A DNA stretch of 64,000 nucleotides from an uncultured Gammaproteobacteria bacterium (lineage in GTDB: Bacteria; Pseudomonadota; Gammaproteobacteria; SZUA-152). Below the pieces are notes generated by a model, which did no database searches, was not told the DNA's origin, and saw only the letters and a program-made list of their open reading frames with translations. Location of the stretch: positions 20,578-84,577 of the forward strand of contig CAJVYS010000001.1 of NCBI GenBank assembly GCA_913009875.1. Reading direction: 5' to 3'. Made by a program: the position numbers and the translations under genes. Shown here in pieces: positions 30,323 through 58,238 of this stretch (within the stretch, counting starts at the first letter, position 1; each line of letters starts with the position of its first letter).

Positions 30323-33034
30323 TTAAGCAGTGAGGTTACGCGGCACGAAGCTCAGACTGTTGAAGGTACTCTTGTACTTGGATTCACCCAGTTTTTTCAC
30401 CTTGGCAATACCAAGCTTGTAGTTGTAGTTGCCGGTAATGATGTCCACCACCGCGCCCTGCAGCGAGTTGGTGGGTTGCCACATGTTAAGGAAGTTGGTG
30501 AACAGTACGCCCTTCTTGATCGCGGGTGTCACAAGCGCCACCGCCGTTACCGCGCCCTTGCCGAGTTCGATGTGCCCCTCTTTCATCAGGGTATCGAACT
30601 GCAGGTGGTTCTTGTAGACGCCGAGGATGGTGTCCTTGAAGGTCGGCACACGTTCGTTGTACATCATCACCAAGTCGCCCGACTCGATACCGCGCGCCGC
30701 GGCATCGTCCGGGTGGATCTCCATGAACTGGGTATCCGCCGGCCAGCGCTGGGCGATATAGGCGCGGCGTTCCGTGTCATCGAAACCCGATTGCCAGATC
30801 TCATTGATGCGGCCATTGGTGTGCCATAGCTCACCATCCTTTGGCTGCAGCCAGTACCAGTAATCGGAGATTAATGACCAGGGATGCTTCTGGAGATTGA
30901 CCTTGCCGGTCTGGCTGTTGAAGTGGGTGTACTTCTTGCTATGGAAATTGGCGCCTCTTGGCCCGTCCACGCCCCACTTTTTCTCCATGTCGGCCTTGGT
31001 CAAGGTGGTGTCATGCAGGCGTTTGGTGCCATGCAGTTCGCCGGTTTCGTAGTTATAGAAGGTGGGGCCCTGAATGCCATCGGTGCCCAGGGAACGCAAC
31101 TTTTCGTGCAGGGTGGTACCCTCGCGATGCGCCGCGACCTTGATCATGTGATAGGCCTTGCGGCTCTTGCGTGAGAAGCGTGACATCTCTTCCGCCACGT
31201 CGCTGGAGTTCTTCCAGTCATAGCCGTCGTAGCCCATGCGCTTGGCCATCTGGGCGATGATCCACCAATCGGGCTTGGCGTCGCCCGGGGCGTCATAGAA
31301 CTTCGAGTACAGGCGCATGCGGCGCTCACCATTGCCGCGCATGAAGTCTTCCTCGCCCCAGGTGGCGGCGGGGAATACGATATCGGCAAAGCGGCTGCCG
31401 ATGGGGTCACGCAGATAGATTTCGTGATTCCACACCACCATGCCACCGGAGTCGGCGCGCTTCTTCAGCGTGTCGATGATCTCCTGCTTGTCGTGCGAGC
31501 GCACCTGGTGAGGGTTGTGGGTCACCATCTGCTCGAAGGCCTGTTGCAGCCCCACGGTGCCGGCCATGGCCTGCACCCAGGTGGTGCCGATAACGTGCGC
31601 CAGACGGGTATGCCCGGATTTCAGCCAGCGGTCGGTGTCCAGTGGGCGCCGGCGTCTGCCCGGTACCTTCTCCGGTGATTTGTTGCGTGGATAGCTGCCG
31701 CCATTCTGACCACCGCGCTGGTGACCACCGAAGCGTCCCACCACCTGACCCGGCCGGCCGCCTGCGCCGCAGGTCGTCGCCAGGGAGGCGACGGCGTTGG
31801 TGTTGGATGTGCCGGCAGACCAATAGGCGCCCTTCTCAATGCCAAAGGAGGCCTTGATCCGCGAACCATCGGCCTTGGGCTTGGCCAGCCACTCGGCCGC
31901 CAGACGGATCTTGTCGGCATCGACGCCGGTGATGCGGGCGGCATTCTCCAGTTTGTACTCGTCCTGTGCCAGCAGCCACTTCTTGTAGCCCTCAAAGCCC
32001 CCGGTCTGAAACTTGCCCCAGGTGGTGCGCCACTGCCAGGGGGTGTTACGGGTGCCCTGGCCGAAACCGGAATTGGTTTCCCACTTGTTGTTGACCCACT
32101 TTTTGATCCATTCCTGATCCTGCCAACCGTTCTCGACGATGATGCGCGTGATCGCGCCCAGCAGCGGTGTATCGGTGCCCGGATAGAGGTCGAGGTGCAG
32201 GCCAACGCCCATTTTCTTGGCATAGGTCAGGCCGGCTGTCTCGCGCGGATTGATGAAGATAACCTTCATGCCACGATCGATGCCCGGCTTGATCCATTGG
32301 GTATAGATGATGGTCTTGGTTTCGTAGGGGTCGGTGCCACTGATCAACAGGGTGTCCGCCGCACCCCAGTCTTCATACGACGGGGCAAAATTGTCGAAAC
32401 CGGCATCACGATAACCCGGAGTGGAGGTCGCCTTGGAGGGCGTGTCGTGCCAGGTCCAGGCCGCGGTATTGACATCGCGGAAGGAGAAACGGGTGATGGC
32501 GTACATGTTTTCCAGAAACTGGTAACCAAAAGTCTTCACAGAATAGGCATTGGCACCATGGGCCTTGATGACATGCTTGCCCACCTCGGCGGCGATATCC
32601 AGGGCGAAATCCCAAGTCACTGGTTGCAGCATGCCATTGATGCGTACCAGGGGGTGCTTGAGCCTGTCCCGTGTCGGCTTGTCGGGATTGTAGACTTTCT
32701 GCGCGATACACCCGCCGCGGATACTGGAGTCACCCTGCAGGTTGACGTACTGGGTGCTCTTGTCGGGCGTGATCACCACATTATGGGGACGCCCTTTGTG
32801 CATCACCACATTGTGCTGAGTCGGCGCCACCCAGTCTTCCATGGCGGCCGAGGGAAAGTCGATGCCGAAGGCATTTTCCGCGGCCTTGGGGCCACCGCTG
32901 GGGGTACCTACCGGCCAGCGATAGACCTTGTAGCCGCAGGCCACGATGCAATAATCGCAGGCGGTGGTCAGCACATCACAATTCTTCGGCGGCAGCGGTG
33001 CATTGTCTTCAGGGATATAATACTCGGTAGTCAT
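30323..33034 (-). CDS. idrA: AioA-like molybdopterin catalytic subunit, probable dissimilatory iodate reductase large subunit
   Basis: CDYCIVACGY (CX2CX3C, [3Fe-4S] type) and SSIRGG, bis-MGD family motifs (GRINEIWQS, EIHPDDA), no own signal peptide, Rieske plus two CCP genes upstream. Confidence 0.82.
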   Translation of the reverse strand: MTTEYYIPEDNAPLPPKNCDVLTTACDYCIVACGYKVYRWPVGTPSGGPKAAENAFGIDFPSAAMEDWVAPTQHNVVMHKGRPHNVVITPDKSTQYVNLQGDSSIRGGCIAQKVYNPDKPTRDRLKHPLVRINGMLQPVTWDFALDIAAEVGKHVIKAHGANAYSVKTFGYQFLENMYAITRFSFRDVNTAAWTWHDTPSKATSTPGYRDAGFDNFAPSYEDWGAADTLLISGTDPYETKTIIYTQWIKPGIDRGMKVIFINPRETAGLTYAKKMGVGLHLDLYPGTDTPLLGAITRIIVENGWQDQEWIKKWVNNKWETNSGFGQGTRNTPWQWRTTWGKFQTGGFEGYKKWLLAQDEYKLENAARITGVDADKIRLAAEWLAKPKADGSRIKASFGIEKGAYWSAGTSNTNAVASLATTCGAGGRPGQVVGRFGGHQRGGQNGGSYPRNKSPEKVPGRRRRPLDTDRWLKSGHTRLAHVIGTTWVQAMAGTVGLQQAFEQMVTHNPHQVRSHDKQEIIDTLKKRADSGGMVVWNHEIYLRDPIGSRFADIVFPAATWGEEDFMRGNGERRMRLYSKFYDAPGDAKPDWWIIAQMAKRMGYDGYDWKNSSDVAEEMSRFSRKSRKAYHMIKVAAHREGTTLHEKLRSLGTDGIQGPTFYNYETGELHGTKRLHDTTLTKADMEKKWGVDGPRGANFHSKKYTHFNSQTGKVNLQKHPWSLISDYWYWLQPKDGELWHTNGRINEIWQSGFDDTERRAYIAQRWPADTQFMEIHPDDAAARGIESGDLVMMYNERVPTFKDTILGVYKNHLQFDTLMKEGHIELGKGAVTAVALVTPAIKKGVLFTNFLNMWQPTNSLQGAVVDIITGNYNYKLGIAKVKKLGESKYKSTFNSLSFVPRNLTA

Positions 33035-33136
33035 AGTGACACCCTCCGGTGATTCTTTTTAGTACCTTAGAAATAATTTTCTGCGCATTTTGTAGAAAAT
33101 TATTTTTTAGTGAAGGTACTTATCCTGTTTATGGGG

Positions 33137-33736
33137 TTACGATTCCAGCAGATTTTTGTGACGGCCAAAGATCAGCCCCATCATGCCTACGGCGTAGATA
33201 TTGTCGCCATCCAGTTCCAGTAGTACCTGGGGCAGGCTTTCGTAAGCCTGGCCCGAGACCACGATGCCATGTCGTCTCAGGTCATAGGTCGACAGATGGA
33301 GCGGACACTGGCCCAGGATGCGGTGCGGGCCTTCGGCCACATAGCTGCCCTGCAGCGGGCCGCCCTGGTGAGAGCAGATATAGTTGAAGGCAACCACATC
33401 CCGCTTCGGGCCGATGCCGCCACCGGCCTGTGCGCCCGCCATCTTGACGACCATGGCGGAAGAATTGGCCAGCTCATCCGGATAATTGAAATCCACCGGC
33501 ACGTTGTCTTTCAGCTCGCTGAGCTTGGCAATAAGCTTGCGGGGGTAACTCACCACCCGCGCCTGGGCCGCCTGTGCGCTGCCCGGAAATAGCGAGATGG
33601 TAATGGTGCTCGCCGCGACTGCCGTGCTGCCACTGTAAAGAAGGAACTGGCGGCGGGTGAGCATAACCTTGTTATGCACCGCGGCTGAACGTTCCTGCTT
33701 CTGCTTGTCTCTCGGTGTGCTTGTATCAGTACTCAT
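33137..33736 (-). CDS. idrB: AioB-like Rieske subunit with Tat signal
   Basis: TRRQFL Tat motif; CSHQG and CPLH Rieske boxes. Confidence 0.85.
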   Translation of the reverse strand: MSTDTSTPRDKQKQERSAAVHNKVMLTRRQFLLYSGSTAVAASTITISLFPGSAQAAQARVVSYPRKLIAKLSELKDNVPVDFNYPDELANSSAMVVKMAGAQAGGGIGPKRDVVAFNYICSHQGGPLQGSYVAEGPHRILGQCPLHLSTYDLRRHGIVVSGQAYESLPQVLLELDGDNIYAVGMMGLIFGRHKNLLES

Positions 33737-33765: not shown

Positions 33766-35031
33766 TTATTTCGCAGCCTGCGCCGCCTCGAGTTCAGCCA
33801 ATGTGAACAGCGGCTTGTAGCCCGGCAGTCTGGGTTTGGCCATCATGATTTTTTCACCCGTGAAGGCTTCCAGGAAGGCCAGAAGATCCTCTTTTTCTTC
33901 ATCGCTCAAATTGAGCTTGGTGATCAACGGGGTCTTGGTCTTGGGGTAGCTGGTGGTGTTGCCTTCCTCATCGAAACCGCCGCGATCATAGAAGTCGATG
34001 ACTTCCTCGAGGGTATAGAACTGGCCCTGTCGCATGTAGGGTTCGGTGTAGCCGATATAACGCAAACTGGGAACCCGGAACTTGCCTTTGTCCCACTTGT
34101 TCTTGTTACGGAAGTACAGGCCGACATCGTCCTTGACCGTGCGATACAGTTCCTCGGTGGCACCCTTGGCATAGTATTCGAAGCGGAAGGTGATCTGTGC
34201 CAGTCCGTCTTCCAACCACCGCCCTGCGCGGGGGACACCGATATTGTAGTAATTTTCATTGGTAGCAAGGGCGCCATTATGACAAAGGATGCAGCGTGCC
34301 TTTCCTTCAAACAACGCCTTGCCACTCACCTGCTGCTCTGTCAGCGCGGAGCTGTCACCCAGAAGATATTTATCCAGTGGTGTATCACGCTGCACCAGGG
34401 TTCGCTCAAAGGCGGCGAGGGCCTTCCAGGCGTTGTTGATGGTGGGCCAGGGTTCACCGAAGGCCTCATTGAAGCGCTTGACGTACTCCGGGATCAGGCG
34501 CAGCCGTGCCTCCATAAGGTCATTCTCGCCGTTACCGGCGACACCGCCCTTGGCGGCGCTGGGTGCTTGCGCCTCCAGGGAGGGAACCGAACCTGCCCAG
34601 AACAACTTGCTGTAATAGGCGGTGTTGATAATGCTCTGGTTGCTGCGCCAGTGCACGGTGCCGGGATAGCCGCGGGAGATGTCTTCCGCCCAGGACCAGC
34701 CCTGCTCCGGGTCATGACAGGTGGCGCAGCTCACCGAGGCATCACCACCCAGGCGGGGATCAAAAAACAGCAGCTTGCCCAGTTCAATCTTGGCCTTCGA
34801 CATGGGGTTGTCAGGCGGAATGGGGGGTTCACCCAAGGGGGCCAGGGGCGGGATCGCCGCTTCCGGGGCCTTGGCAAACGTGCCGGCCATGGCGGGGGTT
34901 GGCCCCACTTGAGACATCCCGCTTGCTGAAGCCGATGGCTTGTCGCCCATGGCCGCCGCAACCGATACCGACAGAGCCGCTGCAACTGTCGTCGCCATTA
35001 TCAGAATAGACGTTTTCTTTAACGAACTCAT
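33766..35031 (-). CDS. idrP1: Di-heme cytochrome c peroxidase/MauG family protein (IdrP-type)
   Basis: Signal peptide, LGKLLFFDPRL, CATCH, CILCH, FRVPSLR; P1/P2 numbering assigned by position only. Confidence 0.75.
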   Translation of the reverse strand: MSSLKKTSILIMATTVAAALSVSVAAAMGDKPSASASGMSQVGPTPAMAGTFAKAPEAAIPPLAPLGEPPIPPDNPMSKAKIELGKLLFFDPRLGGDASVSCATCHDPEQGWSWAEDISRGYPGTVHWRSNQSIINTAYYSKLFWAGSVPSLEAQAPSAAKGGVAGNGENDLMEARLRLIPEYVKRFNEAFGEPWPTINNAWKALAAFERTLVQRDTPLDKYLLGDSSALTEQQVSGKALFEGKARCILCHNGALATNENYYNIGVPRAGRWLEDGLAQITFRFEYYAKGATEELYRTVKDDVGLYFRNKNKWDKGKFRVPSLRYIGYTEPYMRQGQFYTLEEVIDFYDRGGFDEEGNTTSYPKTKTPLITKLNLSDEEKEDLLAFLEAFTGEKIMMAKPRLPGYKPLFTLAELEAAQAAK

Positions 35032-35047: not shown

Positions 35048-36178
35048 TTAGTTGGGAACATCCAGCCAATTGGCGATTACTTCGTATTCTTTCGGATACG
35101 CTTCGGTCCACACGTGCCGACTGCTGGTCAGCGGTTTGCCGGATAGCGCTAGCAGAAAGGCCACCAGGTCTTTTTGCTCCTGCTTGCTCAGGTCCAGGGG
35201 TTTCATCCTGATGTCCTTGTTGCGGTCGTTATCACCACCACGGTTATAAAAGGCCACGACTTCCGGCAGTGTCTTGATCATGCCGTTGTGCATGTAGGGC
35301 GCGGTGTATTTCAGCTCCCGCAGACTGGGCGTAATGAACTTGCCTATGTCCGACCCATCCGCCTTGTGCTTCTGGATGTGGGCACCGGGGTCACGCTTGA
35401 GGTTCATGTAATTCACGATACCCATGAAATCGGCATAGCCAATGAAGGCCTGATGGCGCGCGGGATCGAGAAACACGTCAAAGTTCTCCTTTACGCCGGT
35501 GTTATATGGCTGGCCGTCGGTGAACATGGGGCCGTTGTGACAGGCGATGCAGCCCGCCTTGCCCTTGAACAGTTCCAGGCCGTGTTTTGCACTGGCCGAC
35601 ATCTGGCCGTCATCAAAAGGCGCCCCTTCCGAGTTCAGGGTCTTGAGGTATTCAGGGATGGCCTTGCGGGCGCCGCCATTGGACGGCTCACCCAGCCCCG
35701 CATCCTTGAACATCTTCACATACAGAGAGTCCTGCTTAAGACGCTCCTGCATGATGCGCATGTCCATGTTCATGATGTAAGATTCGGTAATCATGCCGCG
35801 GGTCACATCATTGAGGTTGGTGCCGATACGCCCGTCATGCATCCACACCGTTTTATGTGCGGCGTTGATCACGCTGGGGGCATTGCGGAAATGCTTGTTA
35901 CCGGGATAACCCTCGGACAGGGCGTCCGGATTGGCAAAGCCATATTCCGGCTTGTGACAGGTTCCGCAGGAGATGGCGGCATCTCCCGACAGACGCTTGT
36001 CAAAGAACAGACGCTTGCCCAGCTCTGCCCTGGCCTTGTTGACTTTGAGGGTCGCTAGCGGGCCAATATCATCGCCTGCTATCGCGACTGGATTCGCCAA
36101 TATCAAACCCATACCCAGGGCTGTTACGAGGAAACCCCTTTTATTCATAAATGGTCTTGTGGTCATTATGCCGGCCAT
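35048..36178 (-). CDS. idrP2: Di-heme cytochrome c peroxidase/MauG family protein (IdrP-type)
   Basis: Signal peptide, LGKRLFFDKRL, CGTCH, CIACH, F.TPSLR..TAPYMHNG; numbering by position only. Confidence 0.75.
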   Translation of the reverse strand: MAGIMTTRPFMNKRGFLVTALGMGLILANPVAIAGDDIGPLATLKVNKARAELGKRLFFDKRLSGDAAISCGTCHKPEYGFANPDALSEGYPGNKHFRNAPSVINAAHKTVWMHDGRIGTNLNDVTRGMITESYIMNMDMRIMQERLKQDSLYVKMFKDAGLGEPSNGGARKAIPEYLKTLNSEGAPFDDGQMSASAKHGLELFKGKAGCIACHNGPMFTDGQPYNTGVKENFDVFLDPARHQAFIGYADFMGIVNYMNLKRDPGAHIQKHKADGSDIGKFITPSLRELKYTAPYMHNGMIKTLPEVVAFYNRGGDNDRNKDIRMKPLDLSKQEQKDLVAFLLALSGKPLTSSRHVWTEAYPKEYEVIANWLDVPN

Positions 36179-36273: not shown

Positions 36274-36290
36274 TGCACAATGCAGGCCAA
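36274..36290 (-). promoter_or_regulatory. Putative sigma54 (-24/-12) promoter for idr operon
   Basis: Minus strand TTGGCCTGCATTGTGCA = GG-N10-GC about 95 bp upstream of first ATG. Confidence 0.55.
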
Positions 36291-36586
36291 ACTGGCCATA
36301 TTACATATTTTCATTTTAAAACATTGGCTTACAGTACATATGTCGAATGTTTCACGGAACAATTTATGAACGCTTTGTTCTATGGAGTCAACCGCAGAGA
36401 CGACTTTGTTCACCCCTCCACGAAATAGCAGGGATATGGGCTGGGATGTCTGTGCAACACGGATCTCACCAGAACGCATGGCAGTCAGCTCACCCGTGTA
36501 GTGTCCTGTTACTTGCTTGTGTTTTGTCATAGCTCCCCTACCCGGATGTCACCTTGGCCTATGCCCTGGATCAGGCTGTGGCCCTA

Positions 36587-42177: not shown

Positions 42178-42306
42178 TTACTGTGACGGTGTTAAATCAA
42201 GATTCAGAGGCAAGCCCTGCACATTCATGATCAAGTGATCCAATCCATAGAAAAGGATCAGCACCACGGTGAAGGCGATTAACCAGATTTGTAGATTCTT
42301 TCCCAT
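42178..42306 (-). CDS. 42-aa single-TM small protein
   Basis: MGKNLQIWLIAFTVVLILFYGLDHLIMNVQGLPLNLDLTPSQ; purine-rich leader; in operon. Confidence 0.6.
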   Translation of the reverse strand: MGKNLQIWLIAFTVVLILFYGLDHLIMNVQGLPLNLDLTPSQ

Positions 42307-42384: not shown

Positions 42385-42546
42385 TCAACCGTGATGTATT
42401 TCAGCACCGCCGGAATAGATTAGCAGCCACCAGAAAAACACCAGCATCAGAACCAGGATGGTCCAGAACAATTTGGGACCCCAGGTGGTGCCGTCCTGTA
42501 ACTCCGTGGCCTGGGTCTTGTCTTCTTGCTTCCCCGATGCAGTCAT
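42385..42546 (-). CDS. 53-aa single-TM small protein (not in ORF track)
   Basis: MTASGKQEDKTQATELQDGTTWGPKLFWTILVLMLVFFWWLLIYSGGAEIHHG; GGAG RBS. Confidence 0.65.
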   Translation of the reverse strand: MTASGKQEDKTQATELQDGTTWGPKLFWTILVLMLVFFWWLLIYSGGAEIHHG

Positions 42547-42656: not shown

Positions 42657-42674
42657 TAGCAACATCCAGGCCAT
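42657..42674 (-). promoter_or_regulatory. Putative sigma54 promoter for the bd-like operon
   Basis: Minus strand ATGGCCTGGATGTTGCTA = GG-N10-GC with TTGC. Confidence 0.6.
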
Positions 42675-43012: not shown

Positions 43013-43128
43013 ATCCACAAGCTAACGCGATGTGAAACAGCGTCCTGAAACCGGAACACATGCACTTTCTATCTTCATGGGATATCAACGTGACCAGTAT
43101 TCAAAAACCAACGGATTCAAAACGAGAT

Positions 43129-51256: not shown

Positions 51257-52675
51257 ATGACCGACACAGACGTACTCATCATCGGCGGTGGAATCTCCGG
51301 CCTCGCCACGGCTTGGTGGCTGGCCCAGGCGGGTGTCTCTGTGCAGGTGTGGGAGGCCGACAAGCGCATCGGCGGCAAGATAAAGAGCCGCCAGCAGGAT
51401 GGCTACCTCACCGAGCAGGCCGCCTCGCTATTGATGAATTTTCGCCCGGAAGTCGCGCAACTGGTGCACGCAGCGGGGCTGGACGAGGTCAAGACCCGGC
51501 GCATCTCCCAGGCCCAGGCACGACGCTATCTCCTCCACCGTGGCCAACTACAGGCCTTGCCGATGCGAATCGGCGGCATGTTGACCTCGCCCCTGTGGAG
51601 TCTGCGCGGCAAATTACGCCTGATGCTGGAGCCCTTCATCCCCGCCGGTAGCCACGATGACGAATCCGTCAGCCAGTTCATCCGCCGGCGGCTGGGCAAT
51701 GAAATGCTGGAAAAGGCCATGGAACCCTTTGTCGCCGGCACCCTGTCGGCAGACCCGGATCTGGCCAGCGCCGGCGCCACTCTGCCCCGTCTGACCACAC
51801 TGGAACGCCACTTCGGCTCCATCACCGCCGGTGTGGTGGCGCATAAACTGCTGCGCCGCCGCACCGCTTGCAGCACCGATACCTTTTCCTTCCGCGGTGG
51901 CATGAGCACACTGGCCAATACCCTGGCATGCACACCCGGCCTGCAGATCCTCTCCAACCGTCGCGTGCAGGAAGTGGCGCCCTGCCGGAATGGCTGGCGT
52001 GTCACTGCGGCAACCCCGGACGGAGAACGCAGCCTCACCGCCACACACGTCATCATGGCCACACCGGCACCGGCGGCGGCAAACCTGCTGGCATCGGTGG
52101 ACAAAACCCTGGCATCGCTACTGGATGAAATCCGCTATGCGCCACTGGCGGTGTTACACATGGGGCTGGAACGCGCAGATATCGAACACCCACTGGACGG
52201 CACCGGCTTCCTCACGCCACGATGCGAGCAGCAACCCTTTTCCGGCAATCTGTGGATGAGCAGCCTGTTTGCGGATCGCGCCCCGCAAGACAAGGCCCTG
52301 CTCACCACCTACCTTGGCGGTGCCCGCCAACCCGAGGCCGCCGCCTGGAGTGACGCCCGCCTGGTCGACGAGAGCCTGCGTGCGCTGACACCGCTGCTGG
52401 GACTGAAGGGCAGTCCTGTGATGGTGCGCATCGATCGCCACGCCCAGGCCCTGCCCCTCTACCATGGTGCCCATATGGCGCGGGACCGGAGTATCAGCCA
52501 GCAACTGCGCGCCTTGCCCGGTCTGCATGTCGAAGCCAATTATCGGGGTGGTGTATCCGTACGTGATCGCATTGCCCGTGGCCGCTCATTGGCGCGCCAC
52601 ATCTGCACACAATTGCAGACAAATACGCGGGGCCTGTCAGCGGATACCCTGATTTCACTGCCCGCGAATCGTTAA
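51257..52675 (+). CDS. hemY: FAD-dependent protoporphyrinogen/coproporphyrinogen oxidase (HemY type)
   Basis: IIGGGISGL, EA..RIGG.I, RRRLG.E......PFVAG..S.DP, FRGGM..L, GTGFL.P, LPLYH. Confidence 0.85.
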   Translation: MTDTDVLIIGGGISGLATAWWLAQAGVSVQVWEADKRIGGKIKSRQQDGYLTEQAASLLMNFRPEVAQLVHAAGLDEVKTRRISQAQARRYLLHRGQLQALPMRIGGMLTSPLWSLRGKLRLMLEPFIPAGSHDDESVSQFIRRRLGNEMLEKAMEPFVAGTLSADPDLASAGATLPRLTTLERHFGSITAGVVAHKLLRRRTACSTDTFSFRGGMSTLANTLACTPGLQILSNRRVQEVAPCRNGWRVTAATPDGERSLTATHVIMATPAPAAANLLASVDKTLASLLDEIRYAPLAVLHMGLERADIEHPLDGTGFLTPRCEQQPFSGNLWMSSLFADRAPQDKALLTTYLGGARQPEAAAWSDARLVDESLRALTPLLGLKGSPVMVRIDRHAQALPLYHGAHMARDRSISQQLRALPGLHVEANYRGGVSVRDRIARGRSLARHICTQLQTNTRGLSADTLISLPANR

Positions 52676-52796: not shown

Positions 52797-53132
52797 ATGG
52801 CCATACCGAAACAGGCCAACCTCCCGCAACCCGCCGCACCCTATCTTTTTCTGCGTGTTACCGGGGCGGTATTATTGATCATGCTGCTGATTTCGGTATG
52901 GGCTAGGTGGTACGGTCAGCAGGTCTCCCTGCCGCGTTACTGCGAGGATCCGCAGGGCACAGTGCAACACCTCGAAAAGGTATTGGTGGAAAAACGTCCT
53001 GCCGGCGATGAGGCGCGCCGCCCCTACATTATTGCCGCCAAGATACTCTTTCTTTTACCGCGTCATCCGGAAGAAGGACAGACGGCCTATCTCACTCGCA
53101 TCCGCACCCACATCCAGGATACCTGCCGGTGA
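52797..53132 (+). CDS. Small membrane-anchored hypothetical protein
   Basis: One TM, periplasmic part with two Cys; stop overlaps kinase start (GTGA). Confidence 0.6.
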   Translation: MAIPKQANLPQPAAPYLFLRVTGAVLLIMLLISVWARWYGQQVSLPRYCEDPQGTVQHLEKVLVEKRPAGDEARRPYIIAAKILFLLPRHPEEGQTAYLTRIRTHIQDTCR

Positions 53133-55723
53133 ACACGAGCATTCAGAGTCGTGATCGCCCCCCCGCCCTGAGCGGACGCTTTCTGCTGATCTTTCTACCC
53201 CTGAGCACCCTGCTGGTCGCCATCGGCGTCAGTCATTACTACGCCGAGATGCGGCTGGCACGGGTCAGTCTGGAAAGCAATGAAATACAAAACGTGGCAC
53301 TGGCACAAAAAGGAATTACCAGTGAGATGCGCGCCGTCATCTCCGACCTCACCTTCCTCGCCAAACTCAATGAACTCTGGGGCCTTTTGGATGACCCCAA
53401 CAATAACTCCGCGCGCCAGAACCTGTCGCAGGAATTTCTCTACTTCAGCGAGAAAAAAGGTATCTATGACCAGATCCGTTTTTTGTCGGCGGACGGCATG
53501 GAAATCATCCGCATTAATTACAACCAGGGTCAGCCGCACATCGTTGGGCAAGATCAATTACAAAACAAGGGTGATCGATATTACTTTAAAGAGGCCATGG
53601 CACAAGACATCGGTGGCGTCTATATGTCACCTTTCGACTTGAATGTCGAAGATGGGCAAGTTGAAAACCCCTTTCGGCCGGTGATTCGCTTCGCCACTCC
53701 TCTGTTCAATAGTCAGGGAGAAAAAAAAGGCGTGTTGATGTTCAACTTCCGTGGTGAACGACTGCTGCAGAGTTTTCATCTGGCCGCCCCCAATATCGAT
53801 GATCACCTCAACCTCATTGATACCAAAGGCTACTGGCTCAGCGGCCCCCGCCCGGAAGACGAATGGGGGTTCTTTATGGGACGAAAACGTTCATTTGCTG
53901 AAACCTTTCCCGCTGCCTGGCAACGGATATTGAACGAAAACAGTGGCGGCTTCGTCACGGAAGAAGGCTTGTTCACCTTTTCCACCATCTACCCCATGGT
54001 CTCGGTCATGGAATTTTATGCCAATGCCGGTATGGGGTCGATCTCCTCAATCTTCGATGGCTATCAGGACACCAACCCCCGTTTTTGGAAAACCGTTTCA
54101 CATGTTCCAACCTCAATTCTGAATACCGCTTCGCAAAACTTTTTTCGCCAAAATCTCTTGCTCTATTCACTGGCGGGTCTTTTTTTACTGGCAGGATCCT
54201 TTATCGTTGCCCAGGCAGGCATTCGCAAACAACTCGAAGAGGCGCAAAGAAGCTTTGAACGCCGCTACCGTGACACACTGAAAAACATGCAATTGTCGGC
54301 AGTCACCCTGGATGCGGAGGGTCTTATTACCTTCTGCAATGATTGCCTTCTTAAATTGACAGGTTGGCGGCGAGAAGAAGTTATCGGGAAAAACTGGTTT
54401 GATCTTTTTGTGACACCACAGGATCGGCAACAGGCACATACTTCCTTTGCGGAAATTATCAACGGCAATGCCTCGCCACACACGATTGAAAGCCATATTG
54501 CGACGAAGTCCGGCGAGACATTACTCTTTTCCTGGGCCTCCACTCTCTCTTTCAGCCGTCTTGGAAAAATATCCACACTGACCAGCATTGGCCAGGACAT
54601 TACCCTGCAGAACGAGCATGAAGAACGCCTGCGAAAATTGTCCCGAGCCGTCGAGCAAAGTCGAAACTCGGTGATGATTACCGACATCGACGGTCATATT
54701 GAATATGTCAATCCGCGCTTTAGCGAGGTGACGGGCTACAGCGCCGAAGAAGTGACTGGCAAGACACCGAGACTCTTCAAATCCGGAGAGACCAGCGACA
54801 CGGATTATGACCAACTCTGGAAAACCATCATCCAGGGCAATGAATGGCGTGGTGTGTTCCACAATCGCAAGAAAAACGGTGAGTTCTATTGGGAAGATAC
54901 CCTGATCTCCCCCATACGCAATGAACAGGGTGAAATCACCCATTTTCTCGCCATCAAGGAAGACATCACTGAGCATGTGCGGCTAAAAGAGGAGGTAGAA
55001 GAACGCAACCGGGAACTGGCAAAAAACCAGACACTGACAGCCATGGGACGAATGGCCACCATGATTGCTCATGATCTGCGCAACCCGCTTTCCTCCATCA
55101 AGATGACCTTGCAGATATGGGGAAAGCGTGCCGAGGGGGACTGGGGTGAAGAGGCTGCAGAGATGAAACAAATCTCACTGGATCAGGTACGCTACATGGA
55201 AACCATTCTCGCCGACCTGTTGACCTTTGCTCGCCCCGACGCCCTGAGTCCGGAGTGGCTGGATGTAAAAAAGCTGCTCACCAGTGCCATCAATACCACA
55301 CAAAAGGAGCTACAAGAACGCGGCGCCAGGATCACCGTGGACTACCAGCCACAGCTACCGACGGTACATGGCGATGCCACCAAATTACGGCAGGCATTCA
55401 GTAACCTGATCACAAACGCCCTGGACGCTACCGACGACGTAAACCACGTTCCGCAAATCCGCATCCGCGCCTTAATGGAGGTTAATGACGCGACACCGGC
55501 AATTCGCATTGATATCTGCGACAACGGTGGCGGTATCGAGCCGGGGCTGAATGGCAAGTTGTTTGAGCCATTCTTCACCACTCGCGCCAAGGGCACGGGT
55601 CTGGGCCTGCCCATTGTCAAGCGCATCCTCGACCAGCATCATAGCCAGATCAGCTTGCACGCAAACAAGAGTGGCGGCACCTGTGCCAGTGTCACCTTAC
55701 CGATAGGACCCATTGAGTCATGA
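53129..55723 (+). CDS. Sensor histidine kinase (periplasmic Cache-like, 2 PAS, HisKA, HATPase)
   Basis: Two TM, YDQIRFL..DG.E.IR, PAS repeats, AHDLRNPL, NLITNA, DNGGG, FFTTR.KGTGLGL. Confidence 0.93.
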   Translation: MNTSIQSRDRPPALSGRFLLIFLPLSTLLVAIGVSHYYAEMRLARVSLESNEIQNVALAQKGITSEMRAVISDLTFLAKLNELWGLLDDPNNNSARQNLSQEFLYFSEKKGIYDQIRFLSADGMEIIRINYNQGQPHIVGQDQLQNKGDRYYFKEAMAQDIGGVYMSPFDLNVEDGQVENPFRPVIRFATPLFNSQGEKKGVLMFNFRGERLLQSFHLAAPNIDDHLNLIDTKGYWLSGPRPEDEWGFFMGRKRSFAETFPAAWQRILNENSGGFVTEEGLFTFSTIYPMVSVMEFYANAGMGSISSIFDGYQDTNPRFWKTVSHVPTSILNTASQNFFRQNLLLYSLAGLFLLAGSFIVAQAGIRKQLEEAQRSFERRYRDTLKNMQLSAVTLDAEGLITFCNDCLLKLTGWRREEVIGKNWFDLFVTPQDRQQAHTSFAEIINGNASPHTIESHIATKSGETLLFSWASTLSFSRLGKISTLTSIGQDITLQNEHEERLRKLSRAVEQSRNSVMITDIDGHIEYVNPRFSEVTGYSAEEVTGKTPRLFKSGETSDTDYDQLWKTIIQGNEWRGVFHNRKKNGEFYWEDTLISPIRNEQGEITHFLAIKEDITEHVRLKEEVEERNRELAKNQTLTAMGRMATMIAHDLRNPLSSIKMTLQIWGKRAEGDWGEEAAEMKQISLDQVRYMETILADLLTFARPDALSPEWLDVKKLLTSAINTTQKELQERGARITVDYQPQLPTVHGDATKLRQAFSNLITNALDATDDVNHVPQIRIRALMEVNDATPAIRIDICDNGGGIEPGLNGKLFEPFFTTRAKGTGLGLPIVKRILDQHHSQISLHANKSGGTCASVTLPIGPIES

Positions 55724-57183
55724 ACACGGCGATGAAAGATTTGAGTTCCATAACGGGTACAGAAGACAGGATGTCCATGAGTAAAGGACATATATTAATC
55801 GTTGACGACGATGTCGCCAGCTGCAGAACGCTACAGCTGCATCTGCGCAGTGAAGGCTATGATGTCGACATGGCCCATAGTGTCGACGAAGGATTAGCCG
55901 CGGCTCATGTTCGGCGTCCCGACCTGCTTATTCTCGACATCCGCATGCCGGGCAAGTCCGGCCTGGAAGGACTGCCCGAATTCAAGCAAACCTTCTCCGC
56001 CCTCCACATCATCATGATTACCGCATTCCATGACATGGACAGTACGATCCAGGCCATGCAAAACGGTGCCGAAGACTATATCCACAAGCCCATCGATATC
56101 GATGAGCTGGACAGCACCATCTCTCAGATTCTGGCCCCCGAAGCTCAATCGACGGTGAAAGCAGATCACAATGAACCCATCACTGACGGCAACACCATGG
56201 TGGGTCGTTCACGTGCCATGAAAGAGGTGTTCAAAACCATTGGCCTGGTTGCGTCCAGCCCGGTAACGGTATTGATCACCGGCGAATCCGGCACCGGCAA
56301 GGAACTGGTGGCCCGGGCCACCCACCGTGCAGGACAGAGAGCCGGTGGTGCCTTTGTCGCCATTAATTGCGCAGCGCTGGTCGAAAACCTTCTGGAATCA
56401 GACATGTTCGGCCATGAAAAGGGATCCTTCACCGGTGCAGTGAGCCGTCAATCCGGTAAATTTGAGCAGGCCAACCACGGCAGCATCTTCCTCGACGAAA
56501 TTGGCGAGCTTTCCCTCACCATGCAGGCCAAATTATTACGCGTGCTGCAAGAAAAGGAATTTACCCCGATTGGCGCCAAGACCCCCCAGCGAACCAATGC
56601 CCGTGTTATTGCCGCTACCAATGTGAATCTGGCTGAGCGTGTACGCGAAGGAAGGTTTCGCGAAGACCTGTACTACCGCTTGCGGGTAGTGACCATTCAT
56701 CTGCCGCCACTGCGCGAGCGCCGCGAAGATATCGAAGATCTGGTGCAGACCCTGATTTCGCGCATCAACCAACAAATGCATGCCGGCGTTAAACAGATCT
56801 CCGCCGATGTTATGGAGTGCCTGAAAAAATACGACTGGCCAGGCAACGTTCGCGAATTGTCCAATACGCTGGAAAAGGCGATAGCCCTCTGCCCGGGCTC
56901 GGTCATCACCCGCAATCTGATATCAGATATTTGTAGTTGTGGTACACCCATGGCCGATAGCGACCATCGCCCGCTGACGGAATTAAGCCTGGAAGAAATT
57001 GAAGGTGCTCATGTAAAACGGGTGCTGGAGGCAACCCGCTGGCACAAGGGGCGCGCCTGCGACATCCTCGGCGTCTCCCGGCCACGCCTGCGACGCATGA
57101 TCAAACACTTCGGGCTGACACCACCTGACGGCACGGAAGAGGATGATGATCACGGAGATGAAAATGCGGTATCCCACGACTAG
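55720..57183 (+). CDS. Sigma54-dependent response regulator (REC-AAA-HTH)
   Basis: ILIVDDD, LDIRMPG, GESGTGKE, ESDMFGHEKGSFTGA, WPGNVREL, Fis-type HTH. Confidence 0.95.
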   Translation: MNTAMKDLSSITGTEDRMSMSKGHILIVDDDVASCRTLQLHLRSEGYDVDMAHSVDEGLAAAHVRRPDLLILDIRMPGKSGLEGLPEFKQTFSALHIIMITAFHDMDSTIQAMQNGAEDYIHKPIDIDELDSTISQILAPEAQSTVKADHNEPITDGNTMVGRSRAMKEVFKTIGLVASSPVTVLITGESGTGKELVARATHRAGQRAGGAFVAINCAALVENLLESDMFGHEKGSFTGAVSRQSGKFEQANHGSIFLDEIGELSLTMQAKLLRVLQEKEFTPIGAKTPQRTNARVIAATNVNLAERVREGRFREDLYYRLRVVTIHLPPLRERREDIEDLVQTLISRINQQMHAGVKQISADVMECLKKYDWPGNVRELSNTLEKAIALCPGSVITRNLISDICSCGTPMADSDHRPLTELSLEEIEGAHVKRVLEATRWHKGRACDILGVSRPRLRRMIKHFGLTPPDGTEEDDDHGDENAVSHD

Positions 57184-57254
57184 GAAAATTCGCTTCACCG
57201 CCACCCAGTGAGCACGCTCATTGCACTTATTGCTTGCAGCAAAGAAGGTAGACT

Positions 57255-58238
57255 ATGAAAACACAACTCGTCGACCCATTCGGTAGAAAAGTTGAATACC
57301 TGCGTTTATCCGTAACCGACAAATGCAATATCCGTTGCTTTTATTGTCTGCCAAAGGGATTCAATGACTTTGACTGCGCAAGCCAGCATCTCACCCAAGA
57401 CGAGATAGTCCGTGTCGTGGGCGCCTTTTCCGAATTGGGCGTTCGACGCATTCGCCTCACGGGAGGCGAGCCGCTGGTGAGAAAAGACTTGTGCAAATTG
57501 AGCGCACGCCTTTCCGGTCTACCGGGGGTAGAAGATTTATCGCTCAGCACCAATGCCAGCCTCCTGGCACAACACGCGACGGCCTTAAAAAAGTCTGGTG
57601 TGGCGCGCCTCAATGTCAGCCTTGACACCCTGCAGGCGGATCGCTTTCATGACATCAACGGTGGAAATCTGTCCGATACCCTGGATGGCCTCATGGCTGC
57701 AAAGGCCGCAGGCTTTGCCCCCATCAAGATCAACATGGTGGCCATGAAGGACATCAATGATGATGAGTTTGAAGACATGGTTGCATTTTGTCTTGAACAT
57801 GACTTCACCCTGCGCTTCATCGAAACCATGCCGGTAAGCAGCGCAGGCCGCAATGCCAGTAAACACTACCTCCCGCTACAGGAGATAGAGGACAGACTCA
57901 AGCGCAAGTTTAATCTGATTCCCGGCGTCATGCCCGGTGGAGGCCCGGCCCGTTACTTCCAGGTCAAGGGCACAAGGCTGCGCATCGGTTTCATCACCCC
58001 GATCTCCCAGCACTTCTGCGAAACCTGCAACCGAGTACGCCTGACGGCGACGGGTGCCCTCTATCTTTGCCTGGGTCACGAGCACAAGATCGAATTACGT
58101 CAACAGCTCAGGGATGGCATAAGTGACGAGATGTTAAAGCAATGTCTCATTGACGCACTGACGCTGAAGCCGGAACGCCATTACTTTGAGGAAAGCCCTA
58201 CCCAGGTCGTTCGCTTCATGGCCAAGATCGGTGGATAA
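57255..58238 (+). CDS. moaA: GTP 3',8-cyclase (molybdenum cofactor biosynthesis)
   Basis: LRLSVTDKCNIRCFYC, LTGGEP, RFIE.MP, FCETCNRVRLT..G.L..CL, M..IGG end. Confidence 0.95.
   Translation: MKTQLVDPFGRKVEYLRLSVTDKCNIRCFYCLPKGFNDFDCASQHLTQDEIVRVVGAFSELGVRRIRLTGGEPLVRKDLCKLSARLSGLPGVEDLSLSTNASLLAQHATALKKSGVARLNVSLDTLQADRFHDINGGNLSDTLDGLMAAKAAGFAPIKINMVAMKDINDDEFEDMVAFCLEHDFTLRFIETMPVSSAGRNASKHYLPLQEIEDRLKRKFNLIPGVMPGGGPARYFQVKGTRLRIGFITPISQHFCETCNRVRLTATGALYLCLGHEHKIELRQQLRDGISDEMLKQCLIDALTLKPERHYFEESPTQVVRFMAKIGG

Follow-up and report, generated by a model that had tools for sequence, protein, structure and literature searches.

Four genes, idrABP1P2, confer iodate reduction on E. coli by themselves, as was found with idr clusters from marine MAGs (PMC13455634). 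The surroundings of idr are poorly conserved according to the literature, and the validated iodate-reducing strains are described without a module of the OR-N2 type. At the arsenite oxidase locus, cytochrome c or azurin serves as the redox partner, and electrons of AioBA pass from the substrate to such a carrier. NXR clusters carry a set made up of a bd-like protein, alt-NxrC, cytochrome c and cupredoxin (PMC3578206, PMC6606698). The idr regulator was treated as unsettled in the first-pass annotation of the present DNA; a sigma54 regulator and a kinase beside idr had already been noted for Azoarcus DN11 (PMC10149662).

Here, the window, which is the whole 64 kb stretch of DNA that was analysed, comes from a marine sulfur-bacterium-type genome and holds a four-gene iodate reductase embedded in a cluster of ~28 kb with a bd-like membrane haem complex, of a kind little understood and known elsewhere from nitrite oxidisers. 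The cluster is composed of two separable modules that also exist apart. In module I, idrP2P1BA is accompanied by moaA, by a sensor kinase and its sigma54 response regulator, and by two further proteins, one with HEAT repeats in the cytoplasm and one resembling cupredoxins in the periplasm. The bd-like OR-N2 complex of module II has a CydA-like subunit with 14 helices, two cytochromes c with three haems each and two small membrane proteins; the module also holds three tetrapyrrole genes, which encode USP-PCP_red, HemY and a radical SAM-PCP_red protein (rSAM-PCP_red) that resembles AhbD and NirJ. All genes named in the first-pass annotation were found where it had placed them. That idr, the bd-like module, HEAT and the other genes are one co-regulated system is probable. 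The best explanation of the whole, to which we give slightly less than an even chance, is a sigma54-controlled iodate-respiration cluster with the bd-like complex as the membrane partner of IdrAB. No description of the idr/OR-N2 pairing was found in the literature searched, and the searchable idr papers make no mention of the OR-N2 complex or of the HEAT, cupredoxin-like and tetrapyrrole genes. Recurring in dozens of genomes, the pairing is a new route to testing the role of the bd-like complex.

The idr core lies on the minus strand:

30257–30269, minus: terminator-like hairpin followed by a T run, just past the idrA stop (from a consensus scan only)
30323–33034, minus: idrA, molybdopterin catalytic subunit of the AioA/IdrA family, 903 aa (Rieske_3, Molybdopterin and Molydop_binding domains)
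33137–33736, minus: idrB, Rieske [2Fe-2S] small subunit (Rieske motif CSH-X19-CPLH, TAT signal TRRQFL)
33766–35031, minus: idrP1, dihaem cytochrome c peroxidase (CCP_MauG, 2 CXXCH, signal peptide)
35048–36178, minus: idrP2, dihaem cytochrome c peroxidase (CCP_MauG, 2 CXXCH, signal peptide)

IdrA has a CX2CX3C motif at residue 26, and it passes the NCBIfam equivalog for arsenite oxidase (405 bits against a cut-off of 359). The latter would fit an oxidase of a periplasmic reductant which, as in AioAB and NXR, passes electrons to a bd-like terminal oxidase, and no iodate reductase; the hosts are lithotrophs and the OR-N enzymes are named as oxygen reductases. However, what distinguishes idr from aio loci is the gene order idrP2-P1-B-A, which includes two peroxidases, and the Sedimenticola and Vibrio proteins that are 69–71% identical to IdrA here have been assigned to the IdrA clade (PMC8692401). 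Together with the reduction of iodate by marine-MAG idr clusters expressed in E. coli (PMC13455634), this leaves the oxidase explanation very improbable.

The bd-like complex is encoded upstream of idrP2 on the same strand:

36587–38995, minus: trihaem cytochrome c anchored in the membrane, 802 aa, ending in an EbdC-like haem b domain (matches to cytochrome c and EB_dh)
39075–40223, minus: membrane-anchored trihaem cytochrome c, 382 aa (3 CXXCH)
40220–42085, minus: CydA-like protein of the OR-N2 subfamily, 621 aa, about 14 membrane helices (PF01654)
42178–42306, minus: small single-helix membrane protein, 42 aa, conserved in 90 loci (motif FYGLDHxIMxxQGLPLN)
42385–42546, minus: small single-helix membrane protein, 53 aa, conserved in 88 loci (motif WGPKLF...FFWWLLIYSGG)

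The CydA-like protein matches PF01654 with 67.7 bits (cut-off 26.2) and aligns with the first helices of solved CydA chains. In their spacing, its residues H91, Y171, E178, Y185, Y187, H201 and H257 agree with the signature that Murali et al. give for OR-N2. No variation is seen in the equivalents of H19, E107, H126 and H186, but the equivalent of E99 is replaced (Y171) and that of E445 is Ser or Ala in the family. The 802-aa cytochrome has three CXXCH motifs, membrane helices at its N- and C-terminus and a DMSO_red_II_gam match of 76 bits. The 42-aa and 53-aa proteins are each likely a small subunit of the complex. The module had been called an orphan, and this is contradicted by the OR-N2 signature: by its sequence features it is the same kind of module as that in the NXR clusters of Nitrospira, Nitrospina and anammox bacteria.

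The tetrapyrrole genes lie on the opposite strand:

46886–49123, plus: cytoplasmic protein with tandem USP and four PCP_red domains, 745 aa (domain matches)
49128–51149, plus: AhbD/NirJ-like radical SAM/SPASM protein with three PCP_red domains, 673 aa (NirJ2 311 bits, AhbD 297 bits, both short of the cut-off of 500)
51257–52675, plus: HemY-type protoporphyrinogen/coproporphyrinogen oxidase, 472 aa (TIGR00562, 257 bits against a cut-off of 98)

USP-PCP_red has 292 positions that are at least 90% conserved, and it is 65% identical in Betaproteobacteria that lack idr. The trio belongs to OR-N2 and not to idr, because it accompanies OR-N2 in the idr-less Gallionellales and Sulfuricellaceae (Betaproteobacteria) and is missing from idr loci without OR-N2. 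Consequently, its earlier assignment as an idr maturation operon is not upheld. The three proteins probably make or deliver the haem cofactor of the OR-N2 complex.

Alternatively, the bd-like complex could be a sink within the same regulon, receiving electrons from cytochrome c or the cupredoxin-like protein as a terminal reductase. In this case, a specialised haem produced by rSAM, HemY and USP-PCP_red would reduce diffusible oxidants of iodate reduction (O2, H2O2 or hypoiodous acid), a reaction that would both detoxify and conserve energy since the protons would come from the cytoplasm. The invariant residues belong to the conserved core of the CydA superfamily, which is the haem site for O2 reduction, and the strictly co-inherited, highly conserved tetrapyrrole-modifying genes suggest a non-standard catalytic haem. 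Indeed, a catalytic haem site would explain these residues and the dedicated pathway no less well than a wire. In addition, the two peroxidases mean that by-product removal is already built into the idr core, H2O2 and O2 are expected to arise from iodate in the Yamazaki model, with the fate of HIO disputed (PMC10149662), and the module is also found in microaerophilic iron oxidisers. Against this stand the replaced E99 and E445 equivalents, the literature on OR-N2 in NXR clusters, which favours a membrane anchor or quinone link, the other oxidases that are probably present in the hosts, and the fact that no OR-N enzyme is known to have a demonstrated substrate. On balance a sink is unlikely, and a membrane partner of IdrAB is preferred.

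The remaining genes follow on the plus strand, on either side of the tetrapyrrole trio:

43060–45597, plus: cytoplasmic HEAT-repeat protein, 845 aa (HEAT_2, 210 bits; no signal peptide)
45692–46426, plus: secreted protein with a cupredoxin-like region and a CarboxypepD_reg beta-sandwich, 244 aa (signal peptide)
52797–53132, plus: small protein with a membrane anchor and two conserved Cys, present in 12 or more loci, its end overlapping the kinase start
53129–55723, plus: sensor histidine kinase with periplasmic sensor domain PF21623 and two PAS domains (domain matches)
55720–57183, plus: sigma54-dependent response regulator with receiver, AAA+ and Fis-type HTH (domain matches)
57255–58238, plus: moaA, GTP 3',8-cyclase of molybdenum cofactor synthesis (TIGR02666, 365 bits against a cut-off of 284)

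The true start of HEAT may be at 43129, as conservation begins near M24. Its homologue is found divergent from idrP2 even in loci without OR-N2. In the cupredoxin-like protein H131, H134, C174, H177 and M180 are invariant (HNIH...CDAHDFMHG), which is the pattern of type-1 copper ligands, and the protein aligns weakly with amicyanin and a blue copper domain. The gene of the proposed copper protein is present, and the copper label given to it earlier has a motif as its only basis. A gene for the SCO1 copper chaperone lies alongside in 28 loci, including loci without OR-N2. The kinase follows HemY in three other loci as well (L085, L086 and L088) and is beside idr in Vibrio and Pelagibaculum, where the kinase/regulator pair and the HEAT protein still travel with idr. 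The small gene ahead of the kinase had been missed earlier; its product matched no Pfam family.

The idr, OR-N2 and HEAT promoters have in common sigma54 elements and a palindromic site:

36274–36289, minus: sigma54-type -24/-12 element upstream of idrP2, TGGCCTGCATTGTGCA (consensus match)
42658–42673, minus: sigma54-type -24/-12 element upstream of the small ORFs/CydA-like operon, TGGCCTGGATGTTGCT (consensus match)
42997–43012, plus: sigma54-type -24/-12 element upstream of HEAT, TGGTACGGCTTCTGCT (consensus match)
36367–36381, no strand: candidate enhancer site of the TGAAC-N5-GTTCA type (at most one mismatch)
42774–42788, 42843–42857 and 42884–42898, no strand: three candidate enhancer sites of the TGAAC-N5-GTTCA type between the divergent sigma54 promoters

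Measured against the consensus TGGCAC-N5-TTGCW, the three sites are weak, with 2–3 mismatches each, and within the 64 kb window alone such sites show no excess over chance. It is conservation at the same places in orthologous loci that sustains the three proposed promoters. In 36 of 104 loci a site of this type lies 40–160 nt ahead of idrP2, compared with 7 on the antisense control; such sites precede the small ORFs/CydA-like gene in 76 of 104 loci and HEAT in 46 of 82, but idrA, the EB_dh cytochrome, rSAM or USP-PCP_red in only 1–6%. The palindrome TGAAC-N5-GTTCA, with at most one mismatch, is present five times in the window, four of these inside two promoter regions. Across 170 loci, promoter regions have 1.18 copies per kb and the remaining sequence 0.041 per kb, a 29-fold difference.

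Linkage was followed through the 80 closest matches per search, which are phylogenetically related, so that the counts are not independent events. With the CydA-like protein as anchor and among the matches listed, idr adjoins the CydA-like gene in 37 of 44 evaluable genome loci; the HEAT/cupredoxin-like genes adjoin the CydA-like module in 60 of 64 and the USP/rSAM genes in 47 of 51. In the reverse search, with IdrA as anchor, OR-N2 is adjacent in 27 and absent in 7–14 of 34–41 evaluable loci, again among the matches listed. The link is kept in three gene orders. The first is that of the window; the second is collinear, cydAL-cyt-cyt-idr-HEAT-cupredoxin-USP-rSAM-HemY (L152, L165 and L167); in the third (L157), idrP2P1BA is followed by two cupredoxin-like genes on the same strand and a divergent bd-like/cytochrome set. 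The flanking genes are therefore no chance neighbours, as had been proposed. Neighbourhood and co-occurrence thus bear out a strong idr-OR-N2 link, with the USP-PCP_red and rSAM-PCP_red genes tracking OR-N2 and not idr. The operon drawn from HEAT to HemY has the right genes, but it joins members of two different modules.

Could two autonomous systems share one island, OR-N2 and the tetrapyrrole genes being a general respiratory unit of lithoautotrophs, e.g., for reverse electron transport or O2 respiration, beside idr? Gallionellales, Sulfuricellaceae, Sulfuricaulis, Venteria and others do have module II with no idr, and the module is also present in nitrite oxidisers and anammox bacteria. Conversely, idr is found without module II: the closest relatives, whose IdrA is 95% identical, have retained HEAT and the cupredoxin-like gene along with idr but lack module II at the locus, others (IdrA 86–87% identical) have idr alone, and the literature describes poor conservation around idr. 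Such independence is improbable, however, given that linkage persists through three gene orders, one of which has a same-strand arrangement directly following idrA, and that the modules are interleaved round one divergent promoter region with common sigma54 elements and palindromic site. Moreover, both are in one genome even if unlinked, as for IdrA and the bd-like module in Halobeggiatoa HSG11 and Parabeggiatoa HSG14. The larger respiratory system proposed earlier hence stands as to linkage and common promoter elements, but the genes beyond the idr core are accessory, since idr also occurs alone or with HEAT only and its four genes suffice in E. coli.

For the preferred iodate-respiration cluster, the following mechanism is proposed. 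The kinase would pick up a periplasmic signal, presumably iodate, and the response regulator would then bind the candidate TGAAC-N5-GTTCA sites, so that the three sigma54 promoters fire together. The bd-like complex may act as the partner of IdrAB in the membrane. Precedent for a periplasmic molybdoenzyme partner comes from the same set in NXR clusters and from Sulfuricaulis, where the bd-like module adjoins a type II DMSO-reductase-family beta/delta/gamma set. Electrons would flow from the quinone pool through the c haems and EbdC-type haem of the complex to the cupredoxin-like carrier and on to IdrB, with USP-PCP_red, rSAM-PCP_red and HemY probably supplying the haem cofactor. The result would be a self-contained quinol-to-iodate chain; beside NXR, the same module is proposed for the reverse direction. 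That the complex supplies electrons to IdrAB is a tentative proposal, possible at somewhat below even chances. The canonical quinol site is reportedly missing from OR-N enzymes, so quinol oxidation by the CydA-like protein is only putative.

Compared to the idrABP1P2 island of Pseudomonas sp. SCT, Denitromonas IR-12 and Azoarcus DN11, the four genes, their order, cofactor motifs, TAT signal and peroxidases are the same here. The nearby sigma54 regulator and kinase are shared with Azoarcus DN11, and the nearby Moco genes with Pseudomonas sp. SCT. In contrast to that island, this locus and many marine genomes of the sulfur-oxidiser type add OR-N2, HEAT, cupredoxin-like and tetrapyrrole genes. 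The arsenite oxidase aioBA, with AioS/AioR/RpoN, is a homologous enzyme pair under sigma54-dependent two-component control like the idr cluster here; unlike idr, aio loci lack the two peroxidases. The perchlorate reduction island (pcrABCD, cld, the pcrSR sigma54 system, moaA and cytochromes; PMC8692401) likewise joins an oxyanion reductase to a kinase/sigma54 regulator, moaA and its own carriers. However, its molybdoenzyme belongs to a different subfamily, cld is absent here, and the bd-like complex replaces the NapC-type quinol dehydrogenase.

The N-terminal helices of canonical CydAB are homologous to those of the CydA-like protein, with His19, Glu107, His126 and His186 kept. Here, however, there is neither a CydB gene nor a Q-loop alignment, Glu99 is Tyr, the Glu445 equivalent is unconserved, about 14 helices take the place of 9, and the partners are cytochromes c. 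AhbD (haem b synthase) and NirJ (haem d1 synthesis) have a radical SAM and SPASM core strongly similar to that of rSAM-PCP_red, which differs in its three added PCP_red domains and in being always paired with the USP-PCP_red protein and OR-N2; HemY passes the equivalog cut-off of HemY/CgoX. Finally, the OR-N2 module of NXR clusters (Nitrospira, Nitrospina, Kuenenia) shares with this locus a CydA-like protein of 14 helices that lacks a Q-loop, c cytochromes bound to the membrane, cupredoxin-like proteins and a haem b protein similar to EbdC, all beside a periplasmic molybdoenzyme. The two small subunits, the USP/rSAM/HemY trio and sigma54 control are present here, and no such description was found for the NXR module. 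In the window, one protein combines the EbdC-like domain with a trihaem cytochrome; the partner is a reductase of the AioA family, whereas NXR belongs to the type II DMSO-reductase family, and electrons would on balance run the other way.

The genes and domains named in the first-pass annotation were found in the window, and its description of them is accurate. They form three operons, in which the idr genes for a predicted iodate reductase stand beside a cytochrome bd-like complex and a group of accessory genes:

36178 down to 30323, minus strand: idrP2, idrP1, idrB and idrA, in this order
Minus strand, start of the second operon: two single-helix proteins of 53 and 42 aa
Minus strand, next: CydA-like protein, 621 aa
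Minus strand, next: cytochrome c with three CXXCH motifs, 382 aa
36587–38995, minus strand: EB_dh cytochrome, 802 aa, last in the second operon
Plus strand, divergent from the bd-like operon: HEAT-repeat protein, cytoplasmic
45692–46426, plus strand: secreted cupredoxin-like protein, 244 aa
Plus strand, next: USP-PCP_red, a USP protein with four PCP_red domains
Plus strand, next: rSAM-PCP_red, a radical SAM/SPASM protein with three PCP_red domains
Plus strand, next: HemY-type oxidase
52797–53132, plus strand: small conserved membrane protein
Plus strand, next: kinase with a periplasmic sensor domain
Plus strand, next: sigma54 response regulator
Plus strand, last: moaA

IdrA, the large subunit, carries the Rieske_3, Molybdopterin and Molydop_binding domains of the AioA/IdrA family and an N-terminal 3Fe-4S motif, C26-X2-C29-X3-C33 (CX2CX3C). 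IdrB has a Rieske motif (CSH-X19-CPLH) and a twin-arginine signal (TRRQFL), while IdrP1 and IdrP2 are dihaem cytochrome c peroxidases, each with a signal peptide and two CXXCH motifs. IdrA is 69–71% identical to proteins of Sedimenticola, Vibrio, Thiodiazotropha and large sulfur bacteria, and the Sedimenticola and Vibrio proteins fall in the IdrA clade of Reyes-Umana et al. (PMC8692401). The protein also passes the NCBIfam arsenite-oxidase model. Loci of the idr type are, however, told apart from aio loci by the idrP2-P1-B-A synteny with two peroxidases (PMC8692401), and this order was found in the window, with the two peroxidase genes directly upstream of idrB and idrA. Synteny and transitive similarity to members of the published tree thus support placement in the IdrA clade; identity as an arsenite oxidase was rejected, as the peroxidase synteny speaks against it, and that this AioA-family enzyme acts oxidatively is highly improbable. 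The nearest public contigs are Gammaproteobacteria MAGs labelled Chromatiales/Ectothiorhodospiraceae, from hydrothermal and marine sediment samples. Since idrABP1P2 by themselves confer iodate reduction in E. coli (PMC13455634), the genes added around idr are accessory under any reading.

A terminator-like hairpin lies 3' of idrA. Further 3', within 29165–30109, is a Peptidase_M90 gene of 143 aa that matches profile positions 116–243; it is 5'-truncated in the window, because the orthologue in the closest relatives has 268 aa, and an Xre/MbcA/ParS-type antitoxin-like gene adjoins it.

The bd-like complex is of a described type. The cytochrome bd superfamily was split by Murali, Gennis and Hemp into qOR, OR-C and OR-N, and in their scheme OR-N2 are CydA homologues with 14 helices, encoded in operons together with several cytochromes c and a homologue of EbdC. 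The CydA-like protein is homologous to the N-terminal four-helix haem core of CydA: it scores 67.7 bits against PF01654, and its residues 79–319 align to the solved CydA chains 9r2g and 5doq, in the N-terminal helices only. The OR-N2 signature (H19, Y replacing E99, E107, two Tyr, H126 and H186) is present as H91, Y171, E178, Y185, Y187, H201 and H257, at offsets identical to those of the OR-N2 reference (H99/Y183/E190/Y197/Y199/H213/H269). These residues are invariant among close homologues and kept in 97 sequences, down to 39–50% identity. About 14 transmembrane helices are indicated by 13 hydropathy peaks and by an AlphaFold model of low confidence (shallow 12-sequence alignment, pLDDT 39.5) with 14 long helices beyond the N-terminal one. 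The operon holds several cytochromes c and an EbdC homologue: the EbdC-like haem b domain is part of the 802-aa EB_dh cytochrome, which also has three CXXCH motifs and membrane helices at both ends. The CydA-like protein gave no alignment to the Q-loop region in solved CydA, which by itself does not prove that the loop is absent. No CydB-like ORF was found in the operon, and a canonical CydAB quinol oxidase was rejected given this and the replacement of key residues (Tyr at Glu99). No NCBIfam family matches the CydA-like protein or the secreted protein.

The first-pass annotation had joined these operons in one respiratory system and proposed a neighbourhood comparison of idr with its flanking genes; in that comparison, the adjacency recurs. 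Anchoring on the CydA-like protein, the 80 best loci (one genome per species, 10-kb flanks) were searched by tblastn with all window proteins. Here idr follows the EB_dh cytochrome in 37/44 loci where the contig is long enough, the HEAT and secreted protein genes precede the module in 60/64 evaluable loci and USP/rSAM genes are present in 47/51, all counts being of the hits most similar to the query, from related genomes, and not of independent events. Carriers include Sedimenticola, Thiodiazotropha, Motiliproteus, Piscirickettsiaceae and Thiotrichales MAGs, a tubeworm symbiont and one Zetaproteobacterium. In the reverse search, anchored on IdrA in metagenome contigs, OR-N2 adjoins in 27 loci and is absent from 7 evaluable on both sides and 7 evaluable on one side; these, too, are top hits from related genomes and not independent events.

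Three gene orders were found: that of the window; a collinear one, with the bd-like genes before idr and HEAT to HemY after it (related loci L152, L165 and L167); and a third, in L157, where idrP2P1BA, two secreted-protein paralogues, CydA-like, two cytochromes, EB_dh cytochrome and a second CydA-like gene share a strand. Adjacency of idr and OR-N2 that survives rearrangement is, even so, a classical sign of a functional link. In Halobeggiatoa HSG11 and Parabeggiatoa HSG14, IdrA and the module are both present and not adjacent. Functional independence of idr and OR-N2, to be set against their repeated adjacency and beside the loci in which each occurs without the other, is quite unlikely.

The run in L157 (12741–21946) is operon-like and directly 3' of idrA. 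Two CydA-like genes that differ from each other (660 and 584 aa) stand on either side of its cytochromes, which calls to mind the OR-N1/OR-N2 gene pairs that Murali et al. mention. In a Zetaproteobacteria MAG (L082, 14969–15517), the EB_dh cytochrome and idrP2 are separated by genes for a hemerythrin-domain protein and a porin.

The loci with only one partner divide the accessory genes between the two. In the nearest relatives (IdrA 95% identical), the HEAT and secreted protein genes are directly divergent from idrP2, and no bd-like or USP/rSAM/HemY genes are present at the locus. Vibrio sp. VB16 and Pelagibaculum spongiae have regulator, kinase and HEAT divergent from idrP2P1BA and nothing else, and some relatives (IdrA 86–87% identical) have idr alone, followed by a Moco gene. 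Conversely, a Gallionellales and a Sulfuricellaceae contig (L171 and L172) hold OR-N2 without idr: the CydA-like protein is 59–62% identical, cytochromes including the EB_dh cytochrome are present, and USP-PCP_red (65%), rSAM-PCP_red (66–69%) and HemY (61%) lie on the same strand as the OR-N2 genes. Neither contig has idr, HEAT or the secreted protein. Because they are kept at idr loci that lack OR-N2, HEAT, the secreted protein and the kinase/regulator pair belong to idr. Because it accompanies OR-N2 in the idr-less contigs and is absent from idr loci without OR-N2, the tetrapyrrole trio of USP-PCP_red, rSAM-PCP_red and HemY belongs to OR-N2, and its earlier designation as idr maturation machinery was not borne out.

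A constant link of the rSAM/HemY pair to OR-N2 was also considered and rejected: in Ferrigenium the two genes are by themselves within 10 kb, and in L087 the kinase, regulator and moaA genes come straight after rSAM, and the 10 kb upstream hold neither USP-PCP_red nor HemY nor a bd-like gene. Further Moco genes (ThiS-like, ThiF/MoeB-like and MoeA) follow moaA in L087 (10001–22076). In L171 and L172 (1–21900), the module is separated from USP/rSAM/HemY by a YNCE/lactonase-type beta-propeller protein and additional cytochromes c, and two cytochrome b genes and an FGE-sulfatase gene are nearby on the opposite strand. In a Sulfuricaulis MAG (L077, 15155–21459), the OR-N2 module adjoins beta (Fer4_11), delta (NarJ-like) and gamma (two cytochrome c domains and EB_dh) genes of a type II DMSO-reductase-family enzyme, whose catalytic subunit gene would be past the locus end; a secreted-protein paralogue and a kinase/regulator pair are also present.

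On the right flank (58245–63124), a minus-strand GAF-domain sigma54 activator of NorR-like architecture precedes genes for a multicopper-oxidase-like protein, a dihaem cytochrome c and a two-domain copper oxidase (360 aa) that resembles NirK; this is probably a separate nitrogen-oxide module. The stretch 8000–12000 has a GC content of 0.37–0.43, versus about 0.58 elsewhere, and encodes a 544-aa DUF4041/T5orf172 (MUG113) protein (8711–10345, minus strand) and a DUF2971 protein (10516–11061, minus strand); the stretch has the look of inserted foreign DNA and may be defence-related.

The three operons appear to share their control. The response regulator has receiver, AAA+ sigma54-interaction and HTH domains. 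A GG-N10-GC element is found at each of the three operon starts, with 2–3 mismatches to TGGCAC-N5-TTGCW, and a strict sigma54 consensus search (at most 1 mismatch) yielded no site in the region, nor does the window as a whole show a surplus of such sites. As the window sites alone are unconvincing, the three sigma54-like promoters proposed earlier could be recognised only through conservation across loci, and at orthologous operon starts they do hold. A sigma54-type site recurs at the same relative position upstream of idrP2 in 36/104 loci (versus 7 on the antisense strand), before the bd-like operon in 76/104 and before HEAT in 46/82; upstream of USP-PCP_red, rSAM, EB_dh cytochrome or idrA, one is present in only 1–6% of loci. 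Five copies of the palindrome TGAAC-N5-GTTCA (at most 1 mismatch) occur in the 64 kb window, one about 85 bp upstream of the idr promoter and three between the divergent bd-like and HEAT promoters. Over 170 loci, its density is 1.18 per kb in promoter regions versus 0.041 per kb elsewhere. This pattern of sites fits one enhancer-binding protein driving all three operons, which most simply would be the cluster's own response regulator. The related aioBA genes are under AioS/AioR and RpoN control. For Azoarcus DN11, a kinase and a sigma54 regulator next to idr had been reported before (PMC10149662). An Rfam scan gave no match and no Moco riboswitch. The small membrane protein at 52797–53132 (about 111 aa, one membrane helix, two conserved Cys, PRYC...C) overlaps the kinase start codon; it is shared by at least 12 related loci, matches no Pfam family and is a candidate partner of the sensor kinase.

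The secreted protein is probably a periplasmic copper electron carrier. Residues H131, H134, C174, H177 and M180 are invariant among 18–75 orthologues (HNIH...CDAHDFMHG), the His...Cys-X2-His-X2-Met pattern of amicyanin-type blue copper sites. In an hhalign comparison with an amicyanin sequence entered by hand, all four ligands align, with weak statistical support (E 0.012, probability 3.6%). A PDB profile search matched the blue copper domain 5fc9 at E 0.81 only, with significant matches confined to the C-terminal beta-sandwich, and the AlphaFold model, built from a single sequence (pLDDT 37), was too poor for a fold search. The copper reading is supported independently because copper chaperone genes accompany the protein: in 28 related loci an SCO1/SenC gene separates the EB_dh cytochrome from idrP2, in loci with the secreted protein but without OR-N2 it lies directly upstream of idrP2, and PCuAC is present in two loci. 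Neither chaperone gene is in the window. Examples in the compared loci are:

L032, 14985–15578: copper chaperone gene
L062, 15226–16443: copper chaperone gene
L127, 4015–4494: copper chaperone gene
L134, 6422–6913: copper chaperone gene

A role for SCO1 at a copper site in OR-N2 was rejected, as SCO1 is absent from the idr-less OR-N2 loci L171 and L172; its presence in OR-N2-less idr loci with the cupredoxin-like gene also speaks against such a role.

The tetrapyrrole genes bear on what the bd-like complex does. The radical SAM protein has a CX3CX2C motif (N-terminal CNLACDHC) and a SPASM domain. It reaches 311 bits with the NirJ2 model and 297 with AhbD, each short of the cut-off of 500; by sequence, it is a distinct relative of the AhbD/NirJ-type enzymes that remodel haem propionate side chains. 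HemY passes TIGR00562 (257 bits versus 97.85). PCP_red, which forms the C-terminus of the protochlorophyllide reductase B subunit, occurs in seven copies over USP-PCP_red and rSAM-PCP_red. USP-PCP_red is extremely conserved (292/745 positions at 90% or above), and no paper on the USP/rSAM-PCP_red domain combination was found in the literature searched. On the most economical reading, the trio would make or deliver a haem-type cofactor for OR-N2, either ordinary haem b or a modified one.

Such a dedicated pathway beside OR-N2, like the haem-site residues retained in the CydA-like protein, favours a bd-like complex that acts as a terminal reductase for O2, H2O2 or HIO; published models, too, have iodate reduction releasing HIO, H2O2 and possibly O2 (PMC10149662). 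We regard this role as possible but less likely than not. More specifically, OR-N2 with a bespoke haem from the trio could be the missing enzyme of iodate respiration, a cytochrome c- or cupredoxin-fed reductase for HIO or HIO-derived O2, which is unlikely. If true, the six-electron reduction would be finished enzymatically with energy conserved across the membrane, and the dispute over the fate of HIO would be settled. It would also be the first physiological substrate for any OR-N enzyme, with a bearing on nitrite oxidisers, anammox bacteria and iron oxidisers.

Terminal reduction and the supply of electrons to IdrAB are nearly equally defensible roles, and electron supply is the one to which we commit, tentatively and at somewhat less than an even chance. 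It is preferred because respiratory islands usually bring their own quinol-side module and because the OR-N2 module accompanies periplasmic molybdoenzymes of two unrelated subfamilies. A further reason is that, for the bd-like protein of the nitrite oxidoreductase (NXR) clusters, the literature hypothesis is a quinone link (PMC3578206; PMC6606698). What the data show is the gene content, the predicted protein locations, the linkage and the shared promoter elements; in the system that we propose from these, a periplasmic signal, presumably iodate, would activate the kinase and the regulator would fire the three promoters. IdrAB would then reduce iodate in the periplasm while IdrP1 and IdrP2 remove peroxide, and the bd-like complex would be the membrane partner of IdrAB. 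On the supply reading, the complex would take electrons from quinol and send them, by way of six c haems plus the EbdC-type haem, to the copper carrier and from there to IdrB.

The components all come from families seen before; what appears to be new is the recurrent, co-regulated union of idr and OR-N2, the attribution to OR-N2 of the trio and the two small subunits, the HEAT and copper proteins as accessories to idr, and the shared enhancer motif. An incomplete literature search found no paper that names idrA with bd-like or cytochrome bd, or that discusses these neighbours. To a specialist, the cluster should be a moderate surprise; more important, it makes the bd-like question testable in tractable bacteria. 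It joins two questions, namely the electron route to IdrAB with the fate of HIO, H2O2 and possibly O2, and the role of the bd-like protein of NXR clusters. The latter, a 14-helix protein, has reportedly been called enigmatic since 2010, and to our knowledge no genetics is possible on it in nitrite oxidisers or anammox bacteria. Because conserved linkage and shared promoter elements tie the module to idr in Gammaproteobacteria, cultured Sedimenticola among them, OR-N2, its small subunits and the tetrapyrrole genes can be tested by ordinary knock-outs, expression and haem chemistry. The bacteria that carry Idr in oxygen-minimum zones, sediments and animal symbioses are for the most part sulfur oxidisers, and the accessory machinery may determine whether iodate reduction gives them energy.

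Compared with canonical CydAB, the window complex lacks a CydB gene and the haem-site residues Glu99 and Glu445. In Nitrospina, Nitrospira and Kuenenia, the NXR clusters encode a bd-like protein of 14 helices that has no Q-loop, together with an alternative NxrC, cytochromes c and cupredoxin-like proteins (PMC3578206; PMC6606698). The function of that bd-like protein was called enigmatic; proposals run from a terminal oxidase at one end to a quinone-pool link like that of alternative complex III at the other (PMC3578206; PMC6606698). The NXR-cluster module and the OR-N2 module of the window have the same gene set, and with this and the OR-N2 signature the bd-like module is no longer the orphan that it had been called. 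A secreted copper carrier would likewise match the azurin and cytochrome c partners of arsenite oxidase and the cupredoxin-like proteins of NXR clusters (PMC3578206).
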